A stretch of 24,908 nucleotides of DNA. It comes from a virus. Its lineage: Duplodnaviria > Heunggongvirae > Uroviricota > Caudoviricetes. The position numbers and the translations under genes are program-made. The stretch lies in IMG/VR virus record IMGVR_UViG_2579778993_000003; one strand, written 5' to 3'. Below are positions 1 to 24,908 of this stretch, in pieces; position 1 is the stretch's first letter; each line of letters begins with the position of its first letter. The notes below the pieces were generated by a model. That model was given only the letters and a program-made list of their open reading frames with translations. It did not search any database and was not told the origin of the DNA.

Positions 1-721
1 CTGGCGTCAGTTGTTACGGGAAGGAATCAGGGTGGCCAGATGTACAGTGGCGCGCCTCATGGCGGTTATGGGACTTGCCGGTGTTCTCCGGGGTAAAAAG
101 GTCCGCACTACCGTCAGCCGGAAAACCGTTGCCACAGGTGACCGCGTAAACCGTCAGTTCGTGGCAGAACGACCTGACCAGCTGTGGGTGGCTGATTTTA
201 CTTACGTCAGCACATGGCAGGGCTTCGTCTATGTGGCGTTTATCATTGATGTGTTTGCCGGATACATCGTGGGGTGGCGGGTCTCATCGTCTATGGAAAC
301 GACATTCGTGCTGGATGCGCTGGAGCAGGCGTTGTGGGCCCGTCGTCCGTCTGGCACCATCCATCACAGCGATAAAGGCTCTCAGTATGTGTCACTGGCC
401 TATACGGAGCGACTAAAAGAAGCCGGATTACTGGCATCAACAGGGAGTACAGGCGACTCGTATGACAACGCGATGGCTGAGAGCATCAATGGTCTTTACA
501 AAGCGGAGGTAATACACCGTAAGAGCTGGAAAAACCGTGCAGAAGTGGAACTGGCCACACTAACGTGGGTGGACTGGTATAACAATCGACGATTGCTGGG
601 AAGGCTGGGCCATACTCCTCCGGCAGAAGCAGAAAAAGCTTATTATGCTTCCATCGGAAACGATGATCTGGCAGCCTGAGTTCACAGATAAAACACTCTC
701 CAGGAAACCCGGGGCGGTTCA
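1..721 (+). mobile_element. IS3-family insertion sequence, right-hand part (element continues upstream of the window); right terminus at 721
   Basis: Transposase OrfB occupies 2-679. Sequence 678-721 (gagttcacagataaaacactctccaggaaacccggggcggttca) is the reverse complement of a TGAACCGCCCCGGG... terminal inverted repeat that I recall for IS629/IS3411-type IS3-family elements. The left end is outside the window, so length and target-site duplication cannot be checked. Confidence 0.7.
2..679 (+). CDS. IS3-family transposase OrfB (DDE integrase catalytic domain), 5'-partial at window edge
   Basis: The track ORF 11..679 begins at a TTG, and the frame is open back to position 2, so the true N-terminus lies upstream. 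The translation carries IS3-family OrfB hallmarks (WVADFTYV, HSDKGSQY, GDSYDNAMAESINGLYKAE). Stop TGA at 677-679, immediately followed by the terminal repeat. Confidence 0.85.
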   Translation, partial: WRQLLREGIRVARCTVARLMAVMGLAGVLRGKKVRTTVSRKTVATGDRVNRQFVAERPDQLWVADFTYVSTWQGFVYVAFIIDVFAGYIVGWRVSSSMETTFVLDALEQALWARRPSGTIHHSDKGSQYVSLAYTERLKEAGLLASTGSTGDSYDNAMAESINGLYKAEVIHRKSWKNRAEVELATLTWVDWYNNRRLLGRLGHTPPAEAEKAYYASIGNDDLAA

Positions 722-744
722 CAGTTTGGTAATTGACTAATCAT
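722..744 (-). pseudogene. 5' stub of a prophage gene cut by the IS insertion (ATG at 742-744, only about 7 codons remain)
   Basis: On the minus strand, GGGAG then a 9-nt spacer then ATG ATT AGT CAA TTA CCA AAC runs directly into the IS terminus at 721. A good Shine-Dalgarno with the reading frame ending at the IS boundary suggests a disrupted gene downstream of the lysis cassette. Confidence 0.35.
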
Positions 745-819
745 GAGTCGCAACTCCCTAATCAGTTTGCTAAAATCAATCAAGGCAGCCTCCCATAGCT
801 TACTGCCATAAAAACAAAA

Positions 820-850
820 CCCCGCTTGCTGCCAACAAACGGGGTTTTTA
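820..850. terminator. Bidirectional intrinsic terminator downstream of the endolysin gene
   Basis: Hairpin ccccgcttgctgccaacaaacgggg (820-844) is flanked by an A-run (811-819) and a T-run (845-849), so it can terminate either strand. Confidence 0.6.
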
Positions 851-938
851 CTTTTATTCACTTACATTTTGCCAGTTCGCAGGATTTCGTGTTATCCGTC
901 CGCCTTGGCCAACGTCATTGATTAGCAAAATATTCTGC

Positions 939-1472
939 TTATCTGTCGATTCCCCAGCACGCCAGCGCGCTCTCCTGGTCACGACGGGATACCTGACCGT
1001 AACAGTTATTTGAGCGAATACGGCAGTCTCTGCCACCGTCCTTAATCCACCAGCGAATCGCCTCACACGCTCCCCTGCGATCACCTGCATTAATTCGTTT
1101 ATAAAACGTCGACGGAAAACACTTACCGGGGCCAATGTTGTACGGACAGAATGACGCGATCCCCGCTTTCTGGGGTTCACTCAATGGCACTCTGATGTTT
1201 TTCTCCACCCATGCCAGCGCCTTATCACGCTCAATGGCGTTAACCCGGTCGCATTTTTCCTTCGACAACTTCATGCCCGGAACGACAGGTTTGCCATCCA
1301 CCAGGATGGCACCGCGGCAGATGGTCCAGATACCCGCGCCATCACGGTATGCCGTGGTGTGGTTACCTTCCTTTTCATCCAGAAACTGGTCGAGAATGTC
1401 AGGCGCAGGCGCACCAGCGGCAATCAGCGCCAGAACGGCAGCCGACAGGCCGTATCTGATTTTTGCGTTCAT
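939..1472 (-). CDS. Phage endolysin, lysozyme-like with N-terminal SAR (signal-anchor-release) segment
   Basis: 177-aa ORF. The N-terminus MNAKIRYGLSAAVLALIAAGAPAPD is a weakly hydrophobic Ala/Gly-rich stretch typical of SAR endolysins such as phage 21 R. The body resembles a T4-lysozyme-like muramidase. It lies downstream of a pinholin gene on the same strand. Confidence 0.8.
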   Translation of the reverse strand: MNAKIRYGLSAAVLALIAAGAPAPDILDQFLDEKEGNHTTAYRDGAGIWTICRGAILVDGKPVVPGMKLSKEKCDRVNAIERDKALAWVEKNIRVPLSEPQKAGIASFCPYNIGPGKCFPSTFYKRINAGDRRGACEAIRWWIKDGGRDCRIRSNNCYGQVSRRDQESALACWGIDR

Positions 1473-1577
1473 GGATATTTATCAGGATTTATCGGTTTCT
1501 GAGCCCTGGATATGTTTATCAGTTCCAGCCTGTTGCCTCAGGCTGCTAACAGGTCAATACAATCATGAGGATTATTT

Positions 1578-1850
1578 ATGGACAATAACACCATTTCTCT
1601 ACAGGAGTTGCTCGACAGCATTTCCAGGCTTCGGGAAGACGTGAATACCCTTACCGTCGCCTTCTCATATCTGGCATTCTCAATTCCAAGGGAACAGATG
1701 CAATCAACGCTGGCATCAATCCAGTTTGAATCATGCAATCCCAAATGGTCTCAGGAACAACAAGACTCTTTCAGGCGGCTTGCTGTATTACTGGATGAAA
1801 AATATGCTGGTAAAATTACCATTTCGGCGGACTCTTCAGAGAACCCGTAA
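1578..1850 (+). CDS. Hypothetical 90-aa protein encoded opposite to the lysis genes (possible moron)
   Basis: ATG at 1578 preceded by GAGG with a 7-nt spacer. It sits in the unusually long 343-bp gap between the 114-aa gene and the endolysin start, and its 3' end overlaps the convergent 114-aa gene by about 35 bp. No recognisable motif. Confidence 0.35.
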   Translation: MDNNTISLQELLDSISRLREDVNTLTVAFSYLAFSIPREQMQSTLASIQFESCNPKWSQEQQDSFRRLAVLLDEKYAGKITISADSSENP

Positions 1851-2160
1851 TTATTCCCGGTAGTTTTCCTCTGTAGGTTATCAACACATCCTGCGCCTCT
1901 AAAATTACGGGGCGCTTTTCCGGCGACTGCTCATCCCCTTCACATAACCCGGCAGCAACATCCAGGAAGACCTGTCTGATGCTCCTTCTGGCTGCTGCCT
2001 CATAAAACTCCAGCGCGGCACCTTCAACACGGTCCAGCGAGATGTCCAGGTCAAAAATTTCACCGTCAAAGCGTTTTTTGTCCCGTAACGCTAAAGTTAC
2101 CGTAACTTTATTCTCAAAATTGCGGATCCCTTTCACAATCAGTTCATAGTTTTGAGTCAT
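1816..2160 (-). CDS. Hypothetical 114-aa protein between holin and endolysin
   Basis: ATG at 2158-2160 is preceded by GGGAGAG, 4 bp after the holin stop, so it appears translationally linked within the lysis cassette. No motif recognised. Confidence 0.5.
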   Translation of the reverse strand: MTQNYELIVKGIRNFENKVTVTLALRDKKRFDGEIFDLDISLDRVEGAALEFYEAAARRSIRQVFLDVAAGLCEGDEQSPEKRPVILEAQDVLITYRGKLPGIITGSLKSPPKW

Positions 2161-2164
2161 TGAA

Positions 2165-2380
2165 TTACTCTCCCCGTGCAGCCTTACGACGGTCCTCTCT
2201 GATTTTGAAATACAGGTTAGTCAGATATGTCAGCAGCCCAAACAGCAGACTCCCCAGCACGCCTATTGCCGCCCACTGAGACGGGGAAACCCTGTCCAGC
2301 AACTGCAGGAACCAGTAGCCCGTTCCCACCGCTGACGTGGTGTATGACACACCTGTTGTGATTTTTTCCATCTGGTACAT
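2165..2380 (-). CDS. Class II holin / pinholin (phage 21 S-like), 71 aa
   Basis: The track ORF is 97 aa, but the convincing start is the ATG at 2378-2380, preceded by GGGAGACGGGGT. The product [71 protein letters not shown] closely resembles the phage 21 S pinholin as I recall it (two TMDs, charged C-tail). A second in-frame ATG three codons later could give a dual-start holin/antiholin pair. Confidence 0.8.
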
Positions 2381-2530
2381 ACCCCGTCTCCCGTTATCCG
2401 GAAGCTGACAACAATAAAAAAAGCCACCAGTTAAGTACTGATGGCTCTGATAACTCATGCAGGCATCTCAGACGACCCACTGACACTACCGGTGAGTTTA
2501 ACGATACCTTCCATTTGACTGGCTCACTTT

Positions 2531-4387
2531 TTATGATGATGCTGGTGCATTTATCTCCAGCACCAGACTTTCTATCTCAACGCCATACGCTGCATTTTTG
2601 GTAATATCCGTCAGCGTCAGCGCATTCAGCCCCAGTGTCAGACTGTCTTTTATGACCTGGAATGCCGGGCCAGCCACTCCATTCAGTTTCGGAGTAACCG
2701 TGGCACTGCCGGCGGTGAACACCAGCTCCAGCGTCTGCCAGTCGTTACTGTAATTCCCGAACTCGCCCAACTTTGTGTTTCCTGCTTTCCTGTGATGCAT
2801 CAGATTCAGTTTGCCGTCTGTGGTCTGGGTGAAGAACGACATCAGGAACGGGTTACCAGTCCCGGTCATCGCCACGACGTCAGGTAACGCTACATCGGTA
2901 TACAGATAAATTCCCAGACCGAACTGGTTGTTGGTCAGTGCGCCTGACAGTCGAAACTTACAGCTCAGTCTGCCACCCCGTGTCAGCAGGGAGACTGCGT
3001 CATCCACCGGATGCATCAGGGACCAGGTTTTATTGCTCTGCTTGGTAACCTTAAACACACCATCTTCCAGCGCAACACTGCCGCCGGTGATGGTCCAGCC
3101 CTGCGCAGCAGCCTCTCCGGCTGTCGGCAGCAGGGAGACTGTACGAACGGATGTGTCACCATCAGACGGCCCCGATGGCGTGTCGCCGCCGGGCGAGGGT
3201 TTAATCTCCGGTGCGGTACCGCTGATGAAGGCGCTGGTTCGACCAACTGCGTTCAGAATAGCGGTTGCCAGGCGATCCGAAATAATGCCCCTGCGCGCCC
3301 ATGAACTGAAATGTGTCGGACGATTTGACGATACCCAATTACCATTACTACGGGATTGCGCGCCGTAATAACCTGCATCAGCAATATCCGGGTCTTCTGC
3401 CGGTAAGTTGGTGGGCGTGTTGTTGCCGTTACCGTCGGTCATGAACGGCACAAAGAAAACGTTGTCGCTCTCCCTGTTTTTGTACGCGCCGTAGACGGAG
3501 TCATACTGTGTGCCGTATGTGTTTTTCCAGTAATACGTCGTGTCGCCACAAATCCACGGTACAACTGCAGCACTGCCGCCATGGCACTGCGCCGCCAGCC
3601 CGGCAAGGTCAGCACGGAACTGCTGTACCATTGCAAGAAATGCTGCTGGCTGCTGGGCGTAACTGGCATTCGTCATATCGAATTCCCCCTGCATCCAGCA
3701 TATCGCCAGCAAAACGTTTTTCGGGTTTTTCTGCAATGCTGCCTTCGTGCGGAAAAGCAGATCCTGATATAATGGTTTACCCACACCCCAGCGTGCCGAA
3801 TCCTGGCTGGCCCCCGTGTCCGCACTGAATGTCCCCTCCGCGCCCTGGGTGAATGCCGAACCACCACGACAGCATGGTACCAGCAGGATCCCCGCATTAT
3901 TAGGGATATACGGAAGCAGTTTTTTGGCAATATGTAAGCCCTGTCCGACACAGCCGTACTGCCCTTTGCTCAGGTCAGCCCGGGGATGGTTAATCGTACT
4001 CATATCCTGAACATCATGCAGACAATGGTCAGCAGGAATGATGTCGTTAAATACGCATACTTCACCACCGGGAGTCACTGTGTTACGACGGGCCAGTTGC
4101 TTAATGCGCGGATGGGGCGCATCGTATGAATCCGGAAGCGGAAGCCCTTCACCGTAAGCCATGGCATTGGACTGCCCGGCCAGTACGATGACGTAGTACC
4201 ACTCCGGCTCAGTTGCACCACTGACGACCACATCACCTTCTGCTGCAATCGCCTGCATCAGGGTATAAGGGGTTATGGCCACCGGACTACCAAACGGCTG
4301 CCAGCCCTCTTTCAGTTTATGTGTCAGCTTTTCCGCAAGATCTGACGGCGACGCCGCCCTGACAACATCATAGTGTTTAAATGCCAT
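2531..4387 (-). CDS. Prophage sialate O-acetylesterase-like protein (NanS-p-like; SGNH/SASA hydrolase with extra N- and C-terminal domains), 618 aa
   Basis: Contains the esterase motif LAGQSNAMAYGEG (GQSN catalytic serine block) after an N-terminal ~60-aa domain (MAFKHYDVVRAASPSDLAEKL...), plus a long C-terminal beta-rich region. It sits between the tRNA/stx slot and the holin, the position of NanS-p genes in Stx-type prophages. Confidence 0.7.
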   Translation of the reverse strand: MAFKHYDVVRAASPSDLAEKLTHKLKEGWQPFGSPVAITPYTLMQAIAAEGDVVVSGATEPEWYYVIVLAGQSNAMAYGEGLPLPDSYDAPHPRIKQLARRNTVTPGGEVCVFNDIIPADHCLHDVQDMSTINHPRADLSKGQYGCVGQGLHIAKKLLPYIPNNAGILLVPCCRGGSAFTQGAEGTFSADTGASQDSARWGVGKPLYQDLLFRTKAALQKNPKNVLLAICWMQGEFDMTNASYAQQPAAFLAMVQQFRADLAGLAAQCHGGSAAVVPWICGDTTYYWKNTYGTQYDSVYGAYKNRESDNVFFVPFMTDGNGNNTPTNLPAEDPDIADAGYYGAQSRSNGNWVSSNRPTHFSSWARRGIISDRLATAILNAVGRTSAFISGTAPEIKPSPGGDTPSGPSDGDTSVRTVSLLPTAGEAAAQGWTITGGSVALEDGVFKVTKQSNKTWSLMHPVDDAVSLLTRGGRLSCKFRLSGALTNNQFGLGIYLYTDVALPDVVAMTGTGNPFLMSFFTQTTDGKLNLMHHRKAGNTKLGEFGNYSNDWQTLELVFTAGSATVTPKLNGVAGPAFQVIKDSLTLGLNALTLTDITKNAAYGVEIESLVLEINAPASS

Positions 4388-4580
4388 GAATCCTCCCGGC
4401 CGGGATAATATTGTGAGTAAAATGAGGAGCGGGCTGAAGTCCGGAAGTTACAGGACAATGGCAGAAGAGAGACAACAGCCCGCAATACGAAAAAGGCCGC
4501 GCTATTGCGCAGAGTGATTACTGTCGGATATTATTCGCCAGCTGAAATATTACTTCACGTTTTATTGTTTATTCCTTGCC

Positions 4581-4609
4581 GCCCGCGTCTCCCAGCGCGG
4601 GCTTTTTTT
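4581..4609 (+). terminator. Plus-strand intrinsic terminator
   Basis: Stem gcccgcg (4581-4587) pairs with cgcgggc (4596-4602) around an 8-nt loop, followed by T7 (4603-4609). The T-tract is only on the plus strand, implying a plus-strand transcript ends here, antisense to the late operon. Confidence 0.55.
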
Positions 4610-4616
4610 GCCCACA

Positions 4617-4850
4617 AGAAAACCCCTCCGGAGAGGGGCTAAAGCCGCGTATCTGTATCATCATGCACATGGTGCCGGGTGCCTCCCGGTGAGTTCAGCC
4701 CGGTGCCACTAAACCCGCGTCATTCTCGTTTTGATAATCAGAGATTATACCGTCACCAGTCGCCCCTCCGCTCAGGGGGATTCACCATGCGAAATTTTTT
4801 TAACAAATGCCCAGTCTGACAGGCAACTGTCAACTTACTGAATTGTGAGC
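4617..4850. repeat. Direct repeat unit A (~230 bp), degenerate copy of unit B, rich in palindromic hairpins
   Basis: Shares ordered conserved blocks with 5105-5318: aaaa(c/g)ccctccggagaggggct, gcatggtgccgggtgcctcccggtga, cccctccgc.cagggggattcaccatgc, ttttaacaaa and cagtcaac...ctgaattgtgag. The first block is a perfect 6-bp hairpin (CCCCTC cgga GAGGGG, 4623-4638) preceded by an A-run, so it is a minus-strand terminator. Confidence 0.6.
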
Positions 4851-4875
4851 AACATAGCATTTAACGGGGAACCTG

Positions 4876-4903
4876 TTTTCTGCAGTAAAAAGGCCCACCG
4901 GAG
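4876..4903 (-). terminator. Minus-strand intrinsic terminator between the two repeat units
   Basis: Hairpin GGCCCA (4882-4887) / TGGGCC (4898-4903) around a 10-nt loop, with a plus-strand A-run at 4877-4881 giving a T-tract on the minus-strand transcript. Confidence 0.5.
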
Positions 4904-5104
4904 CGGATGGGCCTGGAAGGATAGCGGTCATGTGATGCCGGTTTCCCGGTAACTCAGCACCGGTATCTGAGTCAACGTTTTCTCTACTGGGTCATTTCCG
5001 ATACGCCCTGCCTGCTGACAGGCTTTCATCACATCTGAAAATATAGCACCCTGACTGATACTGTAGTACCTAAGGTTCCAGAAACTGTGATGTATCCGGC
5101 ACAG

Positions 5105-5318
5105 AAAAGCCCCTCCGGAGAGGGGCTGGAGAGTGGCGCTATGTGCCATTGCATGGTGCCGGGTGCCTCCCGGTGAATTCAGTACCAGCACCTGAATCCG
5201 CGATTATCCCATATACCTACTCGCTGATTGCCCCTCCGCACAGGGGGATTCACCATGCCAGTTTCTTTTAACAAACTCCCCGCAAACCAGACAACAGTCA
5301 ACCGCCTGAATTGTGAGA
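5105..5318. repeat. Direct repeat unit B (~215 bp), degenerate copy of unit A
   Basis: Same conserved blocks as unit A, including the CCCCTC cgga GAGGGG hairpin (5110-5125) and the 8-bp inverted pair gcatggtg / caccatgc bracketing a variable ~110-nt core. Confidence 0.6.
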
Positions 5319-5323
5319 CATTT

Positions 5324-5347
5324 AAAAAAAAGCCCGCAAAAGCGAGC
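5324..5347 (-). terminator. Minus-strand terminator-like hairpin directly after the tRNA cluster
   Basis: Plus-strand A8 (5324-5331) then gcccgc aaaa gcgagc (5332-5347); on the minus strand this is an imperfect 6-bp hairpin followed by T8. Confidence 0.45.
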
Positions 5348-5362
5348 CAGTGAAAATAAGTG

Positions 5363-5439
5363 TGGCGCGTTGTACTGGATTCGAACCAGTGACCGATTGC
5401 TTAGAAGGCAATTGCTCTGTCCGGCTGAGCTAACAACGC
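5363..5439 (-). tRNA. tRNA-Arg (anticodon UCU)
   Basis: Manual cloverleaf on the minus strand: acceptor GCGTTGT/ACAACGC, D-stem GCTC/GAGC, anticodon stem ATTGC/GCAAT with loop CTTCTAA, T-arm ACTGG-TTCGAAT-CCAGT, discriminator G and encoded CCA. All stems perfect; 77 nt. Confidence 0.9.
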
Positions 5440-5452
5440 AGGATACAGATAA

Positions 5453-5529
5453 TGGACCGCCTTCGGGGACCCGAACTCCGCGCAACCAGCTTCGAAGGCT
5501 GGCGCTCTTTCCTGATGAGCTAATGGCGG
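5453..5529 (-). tRNA. Putative tRNA-Arg (anticodon UCG), slightly degenerate
   Basis: Cloverleaf fits with D-stem GCTC/GAGC, anticodon stem CCAGC/GCTGG with loop CTTCGAA, and encoded CCA. There is one mismatch in the acceptor stem (A-A), one in the T-stem (A-C), and an atypical T-loop TTCGGGT, so it may be a diverged or pseudo tRNA. Confidence 0.55.
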
Positions 5530-5536
5530 TATGTGA

Positions 5537-5612
5537 TGGTGGCCCTTGCTGGATTTGAACCAGCGACCTGGCGATTATGAGTCGCTCGCTCTCACCACTG
5601 AGCTAAAGGGCC
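5537..5612 (-). tRNA. tRNA with CAU anticodon (Met by anticodon; resembles the Ile2/lysidine-type ileX/ileZ class)
   Basis: Minus-strand sequence GGCCCTTTAGCTCAGTGGTGAGAGCGAGCGACTCATAATCGCCAGGTCGCTGGTTCAAATCCAGCAAGGGCCACCA folds as a 76-nt cloverleaf with one A-C mismatch in the anticodon stem. It closely resembles E. coli ileX as I recall it. Confidence 0.85.
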
Positions 5613-7285: not shown

Positions 7286-8107
7286 CTATCGCGTTACCCT
7301 CTTTAACTGCCGCTCCGCCCATGCCTCTTCAATGTCAAACCGAACCACCAACGTATCGTAAAAGCGTTTCACTGATTTTTTCCACGTATCAAGCGTGATA
7401 GCACTCGTCACTTTGCGTATGGCATTAAATGCCTCCGTTGATGGTAGTCTTTCACAGCCACGACCACCACAACGCTGGCAGTCTCTGATAACAGGCATAC
7501 CACGTTTTACCGACTCTTCACGATGAATGGCAACACCACGCCCACGGCAGTCTTTACAGGCAGTGGAAATCTCCCCCTTCCCTTTACATTCAGGACAAGA
7601 AACTTTCACCACCTCCCGAATTTTTTTCCATTCTTCCCAGTAAGACGGATACACACCTTTCGTACACTTTGCCCATACTGGCGGCTTGCCATCCGGATAC
7701 TGAACCTTGTTTGTAAAAACTTCGCCTTCAATAAATTTTTCCCCTCGGCAACAGGGGCACTGCTTTTTACTCGCTGCGCTGCGGGCATAATCCTCAAAAG
7801 CGTACGAAGCCATAATGCGCATCACTACCGGTTTTATTTCTGCCGGAAGTTTTCTCAACGCCGCCACACGATCGCACCGACTGAGTGCATAATCTGCCAG
7901 TAATTCTGTTGCCCGCGCCCTGTCATTCATACTGATGCCCATTTTCCCCAGGAACGCAGAAAACCCCATCTCAGCCCGATTCTGTGTCATGCCCTGCGCG
8001 GCCATCACATCAGTGATACTCAGCGCATCTTTCGACGTTGAGGCCGATGCATCAGTCAGGCCGGGGGATTTTGGGGAGTAGTATTTCGGTAAATCTTCCA
8101 GTTTCAT
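7286..8107 (-). CDS. Putative late-gene antiterminator Q (Cys-rich, zinc-finger type), 273 aa
   Basis: Directly downstream of rusA with a 4-bp ATGA overlap, and followed by a promoter plus terminator pair. Contains repeated CxxC motifs (CPCCRGEK, CPECKGKGE, CKDCRGRG, CQRCGGRGCE). Family assignment rests on synteny and motifs. Confidence 0.6.
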   Translation of the reverse strand: MKLEDLPKYYSPKSPGLTDASASTSKDALSITDVMAAQGMTQNRAEMGFSAFLGKMGISMNDRARATELLADYALSRCDRVAALRKLPAEIKPVVMRIMASYAFEDYARSAASKKQCPCCRGEKFIEGEVFTNKVQYPDGKPPVWAKCTKGVYPSYWEEWKKIREVVKVSCPECKGKGEISTACKDCRGRGVAIHREESVKRGMPVIRDCQRCGGRGCERLPSTEAFNAIRKVTSAITLDTWKKSVKRFYDTLVVRFDIEEAWAERQLKRVTR

Positions 8108-10231: not shown

Positions 10232-12496
10232 TTATACGGAAACTGGCACACGAGCAGGCAATGGATAGTGAGCCCAGTTATTAGCATTTAAAGCTCTTAC
10301 GCCATCAGCATAAACTTGTGTTTTTCCATCTAATGATTTTAAAGTTACTACAATAGTTACAGGTAAAGGCTCCATTAAGGCCGGTTCATTCGCTCTCAAC
10401 GTTGTTTTAGCTTGAAGAGCCCAGTTACCCGAAGTAATTCCTTTATTAAATGCCTTGCGATGAATTTTTACTGGTGACCACTTTCCACCATGCTCAATTT
10501 GAGCTCTCTCATATCCAGATTGACCGTTTTCTCCTTCCATAGGTACTTTTCCTTTTATAGTATTATTCTCAATTAAGCCAAAACTTAGCTCTACGTTCGC
10601 GCGAACATATTCACTGCCGGCATTAGGGTTCAGTGGTGGTGCATATGCAGCAGTAATTACAATCTCACCTTTAAATTTTCCATTTTGAATAAGTGCCGAT
10701 GGTATGGGATAGTTTTCCTTTCTCCACCTCACCCCAGGAACCAAGAATGTTTGGAAAATCAGAGTAAACCTATCATCACTATCATATAAGGTCTCAATAA
10801 CCTCATTAGGAATTCCCGCTCCCAAATAGCGTCTTTCACTTGGCGAGTAATCAGGAGAAGATAATTGAGCGGAATGAATTAATAATGCTTTAATCAATGA
10901 TGGTGAAACATTAAAGTCTGAATTAGTGGCTATTCTCTGCCATGTATGCGCAGCTAAACTTGCCACAATTGGAGCAGCAAAACTAGTACCAAAATTAGAG
11001 CAAAGCCTATTATCTGGCCCTACGACCTTTAAACTGCTTGCTCCTACATTCCAAGGTCTATGAACCCCACCGCCAGCATGGATTATATCTGGCTTTGGAG
11101 TAAATACAGGCCCAGGGCCACGACGAGTATATGGTGTCGGTGTTCCAATTTCACTTAAAGCATCATTAGCTTCCATATGAGAAACTGAACCAACTGTTAG
11201 TGCTCGGACTGACTCTCCAGGAGAGGAAATTAAATCAGCACCTCCAAGCGGATCAGGATTTGGCCATGTACGTATAGGTTCATCTACATAATTACCTGCA
11301 GCAACTACAAACAAAATACCAAATTTATCGCTGAGCCGATCTAACTCCATCGCAAAATCACTAAACATCTGCTCATTACATGGTCCGCCTCCCAAAGATA
11401 AATTCCAGACTTTTATATCTGGTCTTTTATTTACAGCATCTGCTAGCCTCAGAATTAAATCTGATATATAAGATCCATTTTCATCTAAAGCACAAACATC
11501 ATGGATTTTAGATTTTGTATCAGGAATCCATGGATGATTGTCATTTAAAAAATGAGCGCCTGATATCAATGAAGACACCATAGTCCCATGTTCATAACTC
11601 GTATCAGGAGGAATTACGTATGTTTCCCTACTCACTACCCAAGGAGTAATTGTTGCCGCGATGGGGCTTACCCCAGTGTCAAATACAGCAACAATGGGTA
11701 ATTCTTCTGATGGTACGGGAAAGCTATTTGTTTCAATGCCAACAGAATCACTTACACTAACCGGGAATGCTGAATATTTTGGTTCTGGAATTAACGTTCT
11801 TATACCCGGGTAATCAATGAGAATGTCTAATATATATCTATCATTTGGGGATAAATCCATTATCCTTAATAAGGGAAGACCACATTTTGGTCTAATCTCA
11901 TCATATTTAACTCCGTGTTGTTCTAATATAGAAATAACGTTTTCATAGTTGTTGTAAGTTGCATCTTCACCTGTGTACTCAAATAGTCGTACAAGGATGT
12001 TTGATGATTCAAACAAACCATCAGTGCCTCCTGGAACCTTCCTATTCTCATCCCAAGGTTCAATGCGCTCAATCGCGCTTAGATTAGCCAAAATCGCTTT
12101 AATATTCCGATGTAAAATGACTGACTCTAATACGTCAAAACAGCCGGCATGAGCAGCAACCAACATTTCATCTATTTTGGCATGACCGGCATTTTGCAAT
12201 CCAGCCTCTTGAGCAATTTTGTTCGGCCTATGCGTTTTGGCTATTCCCTGGTCTCTTAATTTGAAAACCAAAGTACCCAAGCTTCCAGGGTACTCTGAAA
12301 GTTTGGATTCTAAATAATGTTTACTGGTTGTTAAATTTCTTACTAGCCCTTGTCTATATTCGGCTGTTACATCAACCAATACCTTTGCCCCACCGCCAGC
12401 GTTTACTATTGCACCCAAGTCACTACTGGAAAAAGGGATTCTTAACATTGGGTTTGTAACTTTTGCGTTACTAAACTGTGTACCCCTTCTGCTCAT
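10232..12496 (-). CDS. Subtilisin-like serine protease (peptidase S8) with extra N- and C-terminal domains, 754 aa; protease component of an IetAS-like two-gene system
   Basis: Catalytic residues in subtilisin order: Asp in VAVFDTGVS, His in YEHGTMVSS, oxyanion Asn in VVAAGNY, Ser in GTSFAAPIVAS. ATG at 12494-12496 with a GGAG/AGGAG SD inside the 3' end of the upstream ATPase gene (26-bp overlap). A+T-rich relative to neighbouring prophage genes. Confidence 0.9.
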   Translation of the reverse strand: MSRRGTQFSNAKVTNPMLRIPFSSSDLGAIVNAGGGAKVLVDVTAEYRQGLVRNLTTSKHYLESKLSEYPGSLGTLVFKLRDQGIAKTHRPNKIAQEAGLQNAGHAKIDEMLVAAHAGCFDVLESVILHRNIKAILANLSAIERIEPWDENRKVPGGTDGLFESSNILVRLFEYTGEDATYNNYENVISILEQHGVKYDEIRPKCGLPLLRIMDLSPNDRYILDILIDYPGIRTLIPEPKYSAFPVSVSDSVGIETNSFPVPSEELPIVAVFDTGVSPIAATITPWVVSRETYVIPPDTSYEHGTMVSSLISGAHFLNDNHPWIPDTKSKIHDVCALDENGSYISDLILRLADAVNKRPDIKVWNLSLGGGPCNEQMFSDFAMELDRLSDKFGILFVVAAGNYVDEPIRTWPNPDPLGGADLISSPGESVRALTVGSVSHMEANDALSEIGTPTPYTRRGPGPVFTPKPDIIHAGGGVHRPWNVGASSLKVVGPDNRLCSNFGTSFAAPIVASLAAHTWQRIATNSDFNVSPSLIKALLIHSAQLSSPDYSPSERRYLGAGIPNEVIETLYDSDDRFTLIFQTFLVPGVRWRKENYPIPSALIQNGKFKGEIVITAAYAPPLNPNAGSEYVRANVELSFGLIENNTIKGKVPMEGENGQSGYERAQIEHGGKWSPVKIHRKAFNKGITSGNWALQAKTTLRANEPALMEPLPVTIVVTLKSLDGKTQVYADGVRALNANNWAHYPLPARVPVSV

Positions 12497-13625
12497 ATGC
12501 TCCTGACTCCTTCAGAATGTTTGAAATTACTCTTGATGTAAGTTTGTACAAATTAGCAAGAACTCTGATAGAAAATAATTTTTTATCTTTAGAACGTAAC
12601 CAACGAATTTCATCTTCGTAAGTGCTTAAATTTACACCTTCCATAAGCGATTGCGCAAGATACAAACGCCTATACAATTTATGGTGATTTATCACACTTG
12701 CACCTTCAATAACTGCATCCCTACGTGCATCCAAGCTCACCTGTTCAATTATTGCTCCGGATAATCCCTCCGATTTTCTTGATAAATCACTTAAATCTAG
12801 ATCGCTACATATCATATTCTTTAAACGATTTTTCCAAATTAACTCTCTCTGATGTATGTCAGGCAGAGGCATTGGAATTCTGAAGCTAAATCGCCTCCAG
12901 ATTGCAGGATCCAGAAGTTGCTCATGGTTAGTTGAGGCAATAATTACCGTATCCTCTGATGCCGCATCCATATTCTGCAATAGTGAAATGACAACTCGCT
13001 GAAGCTCACCTATATCTCTCTCATTACCTCTTGCTCCAGCTAAAGCATCAAATTCGTCTAAAAAAAGCACTGATGGCCTCTGCATTACATAATCGAAAAC
13101 CTGTCTAAGATTTTTGCTGGTTTGTCCCAATAAACTACTAATCAAAGTATCGCAACGCACTGTAAGAAGTGGAAAATCTAAGCGGGTAGCGATGTACTTA
13201 GATAACATAGTCTTACCTGTTCCTGGCTTTCCATACACGAGCATACGACTCGGCAATGCTGCATCAGCTTTAACAAACTCATCATAACGTTGAACATTAG
13301 TGATAAACTCTTCAACACGGGTACTGATTGCTGCAGGCAGAAAAATCTCTGAACTGTCTAATTTAGGATAACTGACATCAACAGTGTTGAGTCGACTATC
13401 AATATCTACCGGTAATGAGCCCAGAGATATCCCACCTCCAGCCCTTTGAGCTCCTGCCAACGCCTGGGGAGCTCTAAGCAACCTTTCTCTTATCATTCTG
13501 GCTTGCTTGACCTCCCCTTTTTGTTCGAGCTTATCTGCCAGCAACCCAGCATAATTACTAGCCATCGAAGCATTTGCCTTTGTTGCACCTTCAATGATTT
13601 TTAACACTTCTGATAAATAATCCAT
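12471..13625 (-). CDS. Classic AAA-family ATPase, 384 aa; ATPase component of an IetAS-like two-gene system
   Basis: Walker A GKPGTGKT, Walker B VLFLDEFD, and a second-region-of-homology-like segment ASTNHEQLLDPAIWRRFSF with sensor Asn and Arg fingers. ATG at 13623-13625 preceded by GGGAG with a 6-nt spacer, after an AT-rich ~190-bp leader. Confidence 0.9.
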   Translation of the reverse strand: MDYLSEVLKIIEGATKANASMASNYAGLLADKLEQKGEVKQARMIRERLLRAPQALAGAQRAGGGISLGSLPVDIDSRLNTVDVSYPKLDSSEIFLPAAISTRVEEFITNVQRYDEFVKADAALPSRMLVYGKPGTGKTMLSKYIATRLDFPLLTVRCDTLISSLLGQTSKNLRQVFDYVMQRPSVLFLDEFDALAGARGNERDIGELQRVVISLLQNMDAASEDTVIIASTNHEQLLDPAIWRRFSFRIPMPLPDIHQRELIWKNRLKNMICSDLDLSDLSRKSEGLSGAIIEQVSLDARRDAVIEGASVINHHKLYRRLYLAQSLMEGVNLSTYEDEIRWLRSKDKKLFSIRVLANLYKLTSRVISNILKESGAYEQKGYTV

Positions 13626-24672: not shown

Positions 24673-24767
24673 ATCCGCTCCGTCGTTATGGTTATAAAAA
24701 CGTGACGAATATACCTACATTGGAGTAACAAATGATCCTACATAGATCACATTACATATGATAATTC

Positions 24768-24908
24768 GGTAATGACTCCAACTTATTGATAGTGTTTTAT
24801 GTTCAGATAATGCCCGATGACTTTGTCATGCAGCTCCACCGATTTTGAGAACGACAGCGACTTCCGTCCCAGCCGTGCCAGGTGCTGCCTCAGATTCAGG
24901 TTATGCCG
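24768..24908 (-). mobile_element. IS1 insertion sequence, IRR-proximal end (element continues beyond window end)
   Basis: GGTAATGACTCCAACTTATTGATAGTG... from 24768 matches the IS1 right inverted repeat as I recall it; the following sequence encodes the InsB C-terminus on the minus strand. Confidence 0.85.
24783..24908 (-). CDS. insB: IS1 transposase InsB, 3' end (5'-partial at window edge)
   Basis: Minus-strand translation of 24908-24783 gives ...[41 protein letters not shown] followed by a stop (TAA, complement of 24783-24785), overlapping the IS1 terminal repeat. Confidence 0.8.

Follow-up and report, generated by a model that had tools for sequence, protein, structure and literature searches.

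A predicted phage-21-family pinholin/SAR-endolysin cassette with YdfR and a convergent ORF beside an IS629/IS1203-type element in an Escherichia coli prophage

In 933W-type Stx phages, the pinholin gene S is preceded by a nanS-p-type esterase gene and followed directly by the endolysin gene R, and Rz lies further downstream, about 1 kb from R and beyond ant; the R protein of these phages is listed as a SAR endolysin (PMC9239132). The Qin prophage of E. coli K-12 carries a compact relative, essQ-ydfR-rrrQ-rzpQ/rzoQ, in which ydfR overlaps rrrQ and rzpQ overlaps the rrrQ end. [quoted passage not shown] More distantly, phage 21 encodes the pinholin S21, of Pfam family PF04971, and the 165-aa endolysin R21 (PDB 3HDE and 3HDF).

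The DNA analyzed here, which we call the window, is an entire draft contig of 24,908 bp (JJLT01000063.1). Profile matches and protein identities support the prediction that its positions 722-2380 are a phage-21-family pinholin and SAR-endolysin cassette with two additional genes between S and R, in the order S-YdfR-ORF90-R and with a nanS-p-type esterase gene upstream of S (Table 1). We consider it highly likely that this region is the standard lysis cassette, in intact form, of a very common E. coli lambdoid prophage integrated next to ompW. That judgment applies to the joint explanation, in which an intact common cassette is combined with a simple IS insertion and the later genes lie on another contig. 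The biology of the cassette is already known, and it is the most common E. coli configuration of a textbook pinholin/SAR-endolysin system.

Table 1. Features of the lysis region and its borders (window coordinates)
Feature	Coordinates	Strand	Characteristics
IS3-family element, IS629/IS1203 type, 3' part (IS positions 590-1310)	1..721	+	complete element 1310 bp
Intergenic spacer 3' of the R terminator	722..815	-	holds the ATG-744 frame and the IS boundary
Terminator-like hairpin, flanked by A-runs and U-runs	816..848	-	15-bp stem; -22.6 kcal/mol; z = -5.06
R, predicted SAR endolysin, GH24, T4-lysozyme type	939..1472	-	177 aa; PF00959, 84.1 bits (cut-off 22.3)
ORF90, convergent 90-aa ORF	1578..1850	+	phrog_2411, E = 1e-58
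YdfR family (DUF1327)	1816..2160	-	114 aa; PF07041, 145.2 bits (cut-off 25); phrog_406
S, predicted phage-21-family pinholin (class II holin)	2165..2380	-	71 aa; PF04971, P21 holin S, 112.5 bits (cut-off 26; profile positions 1-63/64 covered)
Second terminator-like hairpin, between the nanS-p-type esterase gene and S	2420..2448	-	12-bp stem and T7 run; -17.0 kcal/mol; z = -4.8

A sequence-only reading of this DNA had described a 71-aa pinholin gene with a second ATG three codons after the first, a SAR endolysin gene, an intervening 114-aa gene, a convergent 90-aa ORF and a 343-bp gap, with an IS3-family element just downstream of R. Each of these elements was recovered. The distance from the stop codon of the 114-aa gene to the R start is exactly 343 bp, the boundary between the IS and prophage DNA falls between 721 and 722, and the two lysis proteins match PF04971 and PF00959 in addition to their Stx2a-phage and 933W-type counterparts. 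The reading had further treated the layout and the gap as unusual, and this does not hold. The S-YdfR-R order is shared with K-12 Qin. Of 5426 complete E. coli genomes, at least 1117, or about a fifth, have the spacer bearing ORF90, and 693 complete genomes carry the cassette at a coverage of 80% or more. The comparison with other lysis cassettes that had been proposed shows the S-YdfR-ORF90-R layout, and also the distance between R and Rz, to be the norm in this prophage group. Phage Chlobot, an environmental isolate, also has S-YdfR-ORF90-R, with a spanin next. The GenBank "phages" named vB_EcoS-...R were not taken as functional proof, as they are prophages located in the genomes of clinical isolates, not virion isolates.

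With the 933W-type phages the window shares S (98.6-100% identity), R (94%), the esterase gene upstream of S and, in its lineage, the separation of Rz from R by other genes; the two differ in that R directly follows S in those phages and in that ant, instead of three small membrane ORFs, separates R from Rz. Compared to the window, K-12 Qin lacks both the convergent 90-aa ORF and the R-distal terminator spacer, and the C-terminal tail of its YdfR differs (103 aa in Qin against 114 aa in the window).

No Rz/Rz1 pair could be found in the window, either by tblastn with a relative's Rz or by a lipobox scan in six frames of positions 700-960, which together cover the check near 722-940 that had been suggested. 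The relative in question, the IS-free twin TUM14664, differs from the window by 8 mismatches in 24,187 bp, with none in 722-5350. Beyond R it carries ORFs of 43, 51 and 28 aa, which are membrane ORFs in this lineage, and then an Rz of 155 aa (PF03245, 169 bits) with an embedded Rz1 of 61 aa (lipobox VVSAC). This Rz lies 643 bp downstream of R and 425 bp past the IS insertion point, and is followed by genes for a TonB_C protein, an HNH protein, terminase, capsid, portal (annotated as frameshifted) and tail. A terminator in place of a spanin pair behind the endolysin does not signal spanin loss: the hairpin is there and the window holds no spanin, but the twin has the same terminator together with Rz/Rz1.

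This hairpin is located 91 nt 3' of the R stop codon, is identical in TUM14664, is conserved in IS-free relatives, and is possibly bidirectional. The spacer behind it contains an ATG at 744 preceded by GGGAG, which had been read as a new gene cut after 7 codons. The start, the GGGAG motif and the interruption by the IS after 7 codons are all present, but in IS-free copies the frame comprises just 20 codons (MISQLPNWKFLLVWSIPFYG, then a stop codon). It is usually unannotated, or merged into a 70-aa GTG ORF that runs across the terminator hairpin, and is probably not a gene.

The IS portion encodes the C-terminal part of the transposase (ORF 11-679; Pfam rve, rve_3, rve_2 and HTH_21), oriented antisense to the prophage late operon, and retains the right terminal inverted repeat, which ends ...CCCGGGGCGGTTCA. 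Elements of the IS629/IS1203 type are 1310 bp long, carry terminal repeats of the form TGAACCGCCCCGG and encode a frameshifted OrfAB transposase. Over its 721 nt, the IS differs by 1 mismatch from a complete plasmid copy that has 25-nt terminal inverted repeats 1310 bp apart. The window includes neither the left end of the element nor the target duplication, and the likely type is read from the rve domains, the right repeat and this full-length plasmid copy. Copies on IncF plasmids are 99.9% identical, whereas IS1203 of O157 and other STEC genomes matches less well (roughly 95-97%, over combined IS-plus-flank matches).

The element sits in the intergenic spacer, 217 bp past the R stop codon and 75 bp ahead of the next ORF, where the IS-free twin reads ...AAAAATTTC up to the insertion point and CAGTTTGGTAATTG from it. 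A simple insertion, inherited within a clone, would explain this arrangement, with a predicted 3-bp target duplication, CAG. The junction between prophage and IS is identical in four independent assemblies, the window's contig and three further ones reached through IetS, and in its exact form is known from one clone only; it had no match in complete E. coli genomes, species-representative genomes, JGI metagenomes or IMG/VR. Nor did the predicted left junction, in which the left end of the IS (TGAACCGCCCCGG...) would follow ...GCAAAAATTTCCAG, have any match. When R, the NanS-p-type esterase, the methyltransferase and DUF968 were used to look up exact protein matches, all the matches listed came from IS-free relatives. 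One record, H86, apparently covered the window from position 1, and was rejected as a false join to an IS located elsewhere in that record.

The IS could instead mark a real truncation, an IS-mediated deletion or inversion having removed Rz/Rz1 and the morphogenesis genes and left a spanin-less, non-productive remnant retained for its cargo (IetAS, the nanS-p-type esterase and the tRNAs). The window has no spanin and stops within the IS, the junction has been inherited in a clone sampled four times, and prophage relatives at the same locus (L021, L023, L024 and L054) have large late-region deletions. We nevertheless find this explanation unlikely. The contig ends inside multi-copy IS elements at both sides, IS629-like on the left and a partial IS1 on the right, and the window appears cut because short-read contigs break in repeats; missing sequence does not imply missing genes. 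The insertion is intergenic, and only 8 differences over the 24.2 kb retained, relative to an IS-free twin annotated to its tail genes, argue for a recent event and not for long decay. Simple insertions at the equivalent place have two precedents in E. coli, CEC13002 and ESDR8, in which an IS1203-type element lies in the same orientation between R and Rz and Rz is retained. Finally, the sister contig JJLS01000171.1 (30,833 bp) extends 5,695 bp past the locus examined in it, and so carries ∼4.9 kb beyond the IS.

It is most likely that the genes for the spanins and for morphogenesis persist past the IS, on another contig. The earlier suggestion of a truncated or lysis-impaired prophage cannot be read from a whole draft contig that ends in an IS at both sides: since these are multi-copy elements, neither truncation nor a lysis defect can be inferred from the window sequence. 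As for its suggestion of a domesticated carrier of defense genes or other cargo, an IetAS defense system is indeed present (10232-13625), but IS-free relatives with a largely complete-looking late region carry IetAS too, so that the IS is not needed to explain it. IS insertion is routine, and a contig ending in the repeat does not allow its consequence to be judged. More generally, where a contig stops within a multi-copy IS, a feature at that end marks the horizon of the assembly and is no evidence of truncation.

For an intact cassette, the paradigm of phage 21 and 933W suggests the following lysis steps. The Q antiterminator (7286-8107) would let RNA polymerase from the late promoter cross the methyltransferase gene, the tRNAs, the esterase gene and both hairpins. 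S would accumulate in the inner membrane, trigger and depolarize it, upon which membrane-tethered R would be released, refold and degrade the murein. Rz/Rz1, encoded in this lineage ∼640 bp downstream of R behind the three tiny membrane ORFs, would then disrupt the outer membrane. From lambda biology, Q-modified polymerase may also be expected to read through the 1.3-kb antisense IS.

The 114-aa protein belongs to the YdfR family by its profile match and by its position between holin and lysozyme, as in K-12 Qin, and is 81% identical to K-12 YdfR over residues 1-74; beyond DUF1327, searches of Pfam, NCBIfam and PADLOC gave no match for it. Its gene starts 4 nt after the S stop codon, and its 3' end is overlapped by ORF90 over 35 nt. 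ORF90 has a Shine-Dalgarno motif, GAGGA, 7 nt 5' of its ATG, and lies within an indel of roughly 275 bp in the spacer between ydfR and R. Its homologues are conserved in length down to 58% identity, with an excess of substitutions at third codon positions. The encoded protein is acidic and is predicted to form a three-helix bundle (AF2 pLDDT 77); searches of Pfam, NCBIfam and PADLOC gave no match, nor did a Foldseek search of the model against the PDB (E ≤ 0.001). A candidate distant homologue, P0061 ("ybl58", 44% identity), proved to be a frameshifted version of ORF90 and was rejected, and the convergent 90-aa ORF of the O157-type cassette is unrelated.

YdfR and ORF90 would best be seen as widespread accessory cargo of the slot between S and R, not as a disruption of the cassette. 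Alternatively, they could be a functional part of the lysis program, for example in timing or in protecting late mRNA, RNase E being the target of YdfR. This would fit the known binding of K-12 YdfR to the RNase E catalytic domain and to RNA, the conservation of the position between S and R over hundreds of prophages with ydfR starting so close to the S stop, and the fact that S-YdfR-ORF90 travels as a unit, even beside a different endolysin in phage phiSTEC1575-Stx2k. It is improbable, however, given that the 933W-type phages need neither gene, R coming directly after S, and that ORF90 is missing from K-12 Qin and other variants, has no fold match or Pfam, NCBIfam or PADLOC family, and is convergent and hence outside the late transcript.

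In a broader reading, which we regard as improbable, YdfR and ORF90, lodged between pinholin and endolysin in about a fifth of E. coli genomes, would form an unrecognized accessory module of lambdoid lysis. YdfR would then adjust how stable the late or lysis transcript is, via the RNase E catalytic domain or RNA, and the ORF90 protein would act in the lysogen. Separately, S and R might in this clone be uncoupled by the IS from the genes for spanins and morphogenesis, and the prophage would kill on induction without releasing virions. Both YdfR/DUF1327 and phrog_2411 are very widespread in lysis cassettes.

R shares 94% identity with 933W-type R and 88% with K-12 RrrQ. Its catalytic triad E35, D44 and T50 (Glu-8aa-Asp-5aa-Thr) aligns with the R21 structure 3HDE, and the two share the GH24 fold family and the positions of these residues; they are nevertheless distant (61 bits, E = 8e-16), R being the longer and having 8 Cys in its periplasmic domain. 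The N-terminus, MNAKIR-YGLSAAVLALIAAGAPAP, includes a putative SAR segment at about residues 7-24, of which 50% are Gly, Ala, Ser or Thr. The Cys residues are at positions 52, 74, 109, 118, 136, 150, 157 and 172, with none in residues 1-30. Since the SAR segment, unlike that of the disulfide-caged subtype represented by P1 Lyz, contains no Cys, regulation of the noncovalent R21 style is to be expected for R. SAR behavior is predicted for R by homology. That R is a Sec-exported lysozyme with a cleaved signal peptide and S a conventional large-hole holin is hardly credible: the n-region and h-region layout and the A-G-A motif at residues 19-21 do resemble a signal peptide, but Pro follows A-G-A directly and at +1 disfavors signal peptidase I, the hydrophobic segment has the high Gly/Ala/Ser/Thr content noted above, the 94% identity to 933W R, used as a SAR endolysin, extends through that segment, and S belongs to the P21 pinholin family.

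S matches the Stx2a-phage pinholin at 100% identity and K-12 EssQ at 79%, and also falls into the holin families phrog_9876 and phrog_20. By sequence heuristics, it has the pinholin architecture of ∼70 aa with two transmembrane domains (TMDs): a weakly hydrophobic TMD1 (residues 8-27; 55% Gly, Ala, Ser or Thr; mean Kyte-Doolittle 0.36) and a hydrophobic TMD2 (residues 36-56; mean 1.55), followed by a charged C-terminal tail. S is predicted by homology to form pinholes. In S21-71 of phage 21, the antiholin delay is attributed to Lys2. The window S has two candidate starts, Met1 and Met4, with Tyr-Gln and no Lys or Arg between them, and differs in this from S21; it begins MYQM, whereas K-12 EssQ begins MKSM.

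The region from 722 to 2380 holds a well-known lysis cassette in the arrangement met most often, and represents known biology. The sequence-only reading had placed S, the 114-aa gene, the 90-aa open reading frame (ORF90), R, the 343-bp gap, the hairpin after R, and the end of the IS element at position 721 accurately. The rarity that it implied for this layout was not borne out.

The S protein matches the phage 21 holin family (PF04971, 112.5 bits). Several Stx2a-converting phages encode an identical (100%) S, and identity to K-12 EssQ is 79%; Stx-phage S proteins were classed as P21-family pinholins in a 2023 survey (PMC10462455). Unlike S21 and EssQ, it has no Lys between Met1 and Met4, so an antiholin role of the longer S form is uncertain. 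R shares 94% identity with its counterpart in a 933W-type Stx2a phage and 88% with K-12 RrrQ, and the R residues E35, D44, and T50 align with the triad in the phage 21 endolysin structure 3HDE. Its N terminus, MNAKIR-YGLSAAVLALIAAGAPAP, is half Gly/Ala/Ser/Thr, and 933W R is listed as a SAR endolysin by the Young laboratory (PMC9239132). Since the SAR segment contains no Cys, the noncovalent R21 mode would be expected rather than P1-type disulfide caging. No recognizable Shine-Dalgarno sequence lies upstream of the R ATG (...GATAAATCCTGATAAATATCC-ATG, minus strand, window 1473-1500), the same start context as that of K-12 rrrQ, where ydfR overlaps the R start. By analogy with phage 21 and 933W, S would build up in the inner membrane, where its weakly hydrophobic TMD1 would exit and TMD2 would oligomerize into small holes, collapsing the membrane potential; the tethered R would then be freed and refold to its active form, and spanins would finish lysis. 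In spanin-defective lambda, the endpoint is Mg2+-stabilized spherical cells (PMC5295617).

The 114-aa protein belongs to the DUF1327/YdfR family (145 bits; phrog_406), and K-12 YdfR is 81% identical to it across the first 74 residues. Some YdfR-family proteins (homologues P0092 and P0148, alignments A4/A5) reach 176 to 183 aa through a C-terminal extension of ∼65 aa, P0092 being found on 463 contigs, and other variants stop at 104, 114, or 116 aa. Lengths thus vary at the C terminus, leaving the first ∼75 residues as the conserved core. Exactly 343 bp separate the stop codon of this gene from the R start, and when the region is aligned to Qin and to two further variants, ORF90 falls in an ∼275-bp indel inside this spacer. 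ORF90 matched no Pfam family, while phrog_2411 matches it end to end. It has a GAGGA Shine-Dalgarno sequence, its homologues in Escherichia, Shigella, and Citrobacter keep their length at identities down to 58%, and substitutions are in excess at third codon positions (17 versus 5 to 10 and 22 versus 8 to 9). We accept ORF90 as a real gene.

The spacer holding ORF90 was found in at least 1,117 of 5,426 complete E. coli genomes, and the full 718-2600 block in 693 complete genomes; the S-DUF1327-ORF90-R order recurs in nearly every locus fetched by exact-protein match. K-12 Qin carries essQ-ydfR-rrrQ-rzpQ/rzoQ, and the environmental isolate phage Chlobot has the same S-YdfR-ORF90-R order followed by a spanin. 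In phage phiSTEC1575-Stx2k (L026 1285-3303), S-YdfR-ORF90 precedes two more holin-like genes and an M15 metallopeptidase instead of the GH24 R, and the block is therefore exchangeable independently of the endolysin. The S-R slot is evidently a common cargo site. Another E. coli cassette type (L031 6288-6560, plus strand) has a convergent 90-aa ORF in the same slot, with no BLASTP similarity to ORF90 and no Pfam family.

Features of the window and of related loci (positions refer to the window unless a locus is named)
Feature	Position	Strand	Remarks
IS3-family element	1-721		ends ...CCCGGGGCGGTTCA
Hairpin after R	848-816	-	flanking A-runs and U-runs; -22.6 kcal/mol, z = -5.1
R	939-1472	-	177 aa; GH24 lysozyme (PF00959)
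ORF90	1578-1850	+	90 aa; convergent; 35-nt overlap with end of 114-aa gene
114-aa gene	1816-2160	-	begins 4 nt past S stop codon
S	2165-2380	-	71 aa; N terminus MYQM
Second terminator-like hairpin	2448-2420	-	strong; between nanS-p-type esterase gene and S
Three tRNA genes	5363-5612	-	late operon; between methyltransferase gene and NanS-p-type esterase gene
Q gene	7286-8107		
IetAS anti-phage system	10232-13625	-	complete; annotated iteA/iteS; early region of prophage
Small hydrophobic ORFs	L003 29237-29585		43/51/28 aa; twin prophage, between R terminator and Rz
IS1203-type elements	L031 4067-5280; L032 4059-5272		R-Rz spacer of two unrelated E. coli strains

Two hairpins bracket the S-R block and may insulate the lysis genes from nonantiterminated transcription. 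Late operons of this group are transcribed by polymerase that Q has antiterminated, and established lambda biology has it that intrinsic terminators do not stop such a polymerase. The observation that R is followed by a terminator instead of Rz/Rz1 holds within the window, which encodes neither Rz nor Rz1. The same prophage is present without the IS in E. coli TUM14664 and strain 102651, and window 722-24908 differs from TUM14664 at only 8 positions, none before 5351. The TUM14664 twin has the identical R terminator followed by three tiny membrane ORFs, none matching a Pfam family, and then Rz (155 aa; 169 bits to PF03245), inside which Rz1 (61 aa; lipobox VVSAC) is embedded. Beyond these lie genes for a TonB_C protein, YnfO, HNH, terminase subunits, capsid, portal, and tail proteins. 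The Rz start is 643 bp downstream of the R stop codon and 425 bp downstream of the site where the IS inserted, and in 933W-type phages Rz lies ∼1 kb from R with ant in between; the R-Rz distance and the intervening hairpin are therefore normal for the group.

The IS sits between R and the 43-aa ORF, 217 bp from the former and 75 bp from the latter. A complete copy, 99.9% identical, measures 1,310 bp with 25-nt terminal inverted repeats, window position 1 corresponding to its position 590. The proposed new gene starting at ATG 744 is indeed broken off after 7 codons, but in intact copies this frame runs for only 20 codons. It is normally unannotated, although in one record it forms part of a 70-aa GTG ORF running through the terminator hairpin. 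Conservation of the region does not extend to the more distant Stx-phage relatives; their matches end near window 810-850. We do not count the ATG-744 frame as a gene, which makes the insertion intergenic. Three further assemblies contain the identical junction (GCA_000627475.1, GCA_053192715.1, and a scaffold from a metagenome), so the insertion is inherited in a clone.

The IS is a routine intergenic insertion at a contig end, and a simple insertion is the probable event. An IS-associated rearrangement is rather unlikely. In its favor, relatives of this prophage carry late-gene deletions and the twin portal gene is annotated as frameshifted (L003 20379-22639); against it, in CEC13002 and ESDR8 an IS1203-type element lies between R and Rz in the same antisense orientation with Rz retained beyond it. 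IS elements seem to have hit the R-Rz spacer repeatedly. Contig JJLT01000063.1 of draft assembly GCA_000627455.1 is 24,908 bp long, and the window is this whole contig. Its right end (24767-24908) consists of the initial 142 bp of an IS1, which the twin has at the same place. Short-read assemblers produce contigs ending in partial multicopy IS elements. With a partial IS1 on the right and a partial IS629/IS1203-like element on the left, the sequence is silent on what lies beyond, and a truncation read into either end is an assembly horizon. A sister contig, JJLS01000171.1 (30,833 bp), spans the IS and runs ∼4.9 kb further. The closest available evidence leans against the suggestion that the prophage is lysis impaired or truncated, which the window itself neither supports nor excludes.

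The prophage family is often defective, with or without the IS. The IetAS system, comprising an AAA ATPase (IetA, 384 aa; PADLOC E = 9e-143) and an S8 peptidase (IetS, 754 aa; E = 6e-300), is also carried by IS-free relatives. Several relatives at the ompW site (L021, L023, L024, and L054) lack most head and tail genes. The tRNA genes are Arg-UCU, Arg-UCG, and one with a CAU anticodon, called Met by ARAGORN versus Ile by PGAP in the twin; Stx phages likewise carry tRNA genes in the late operon.
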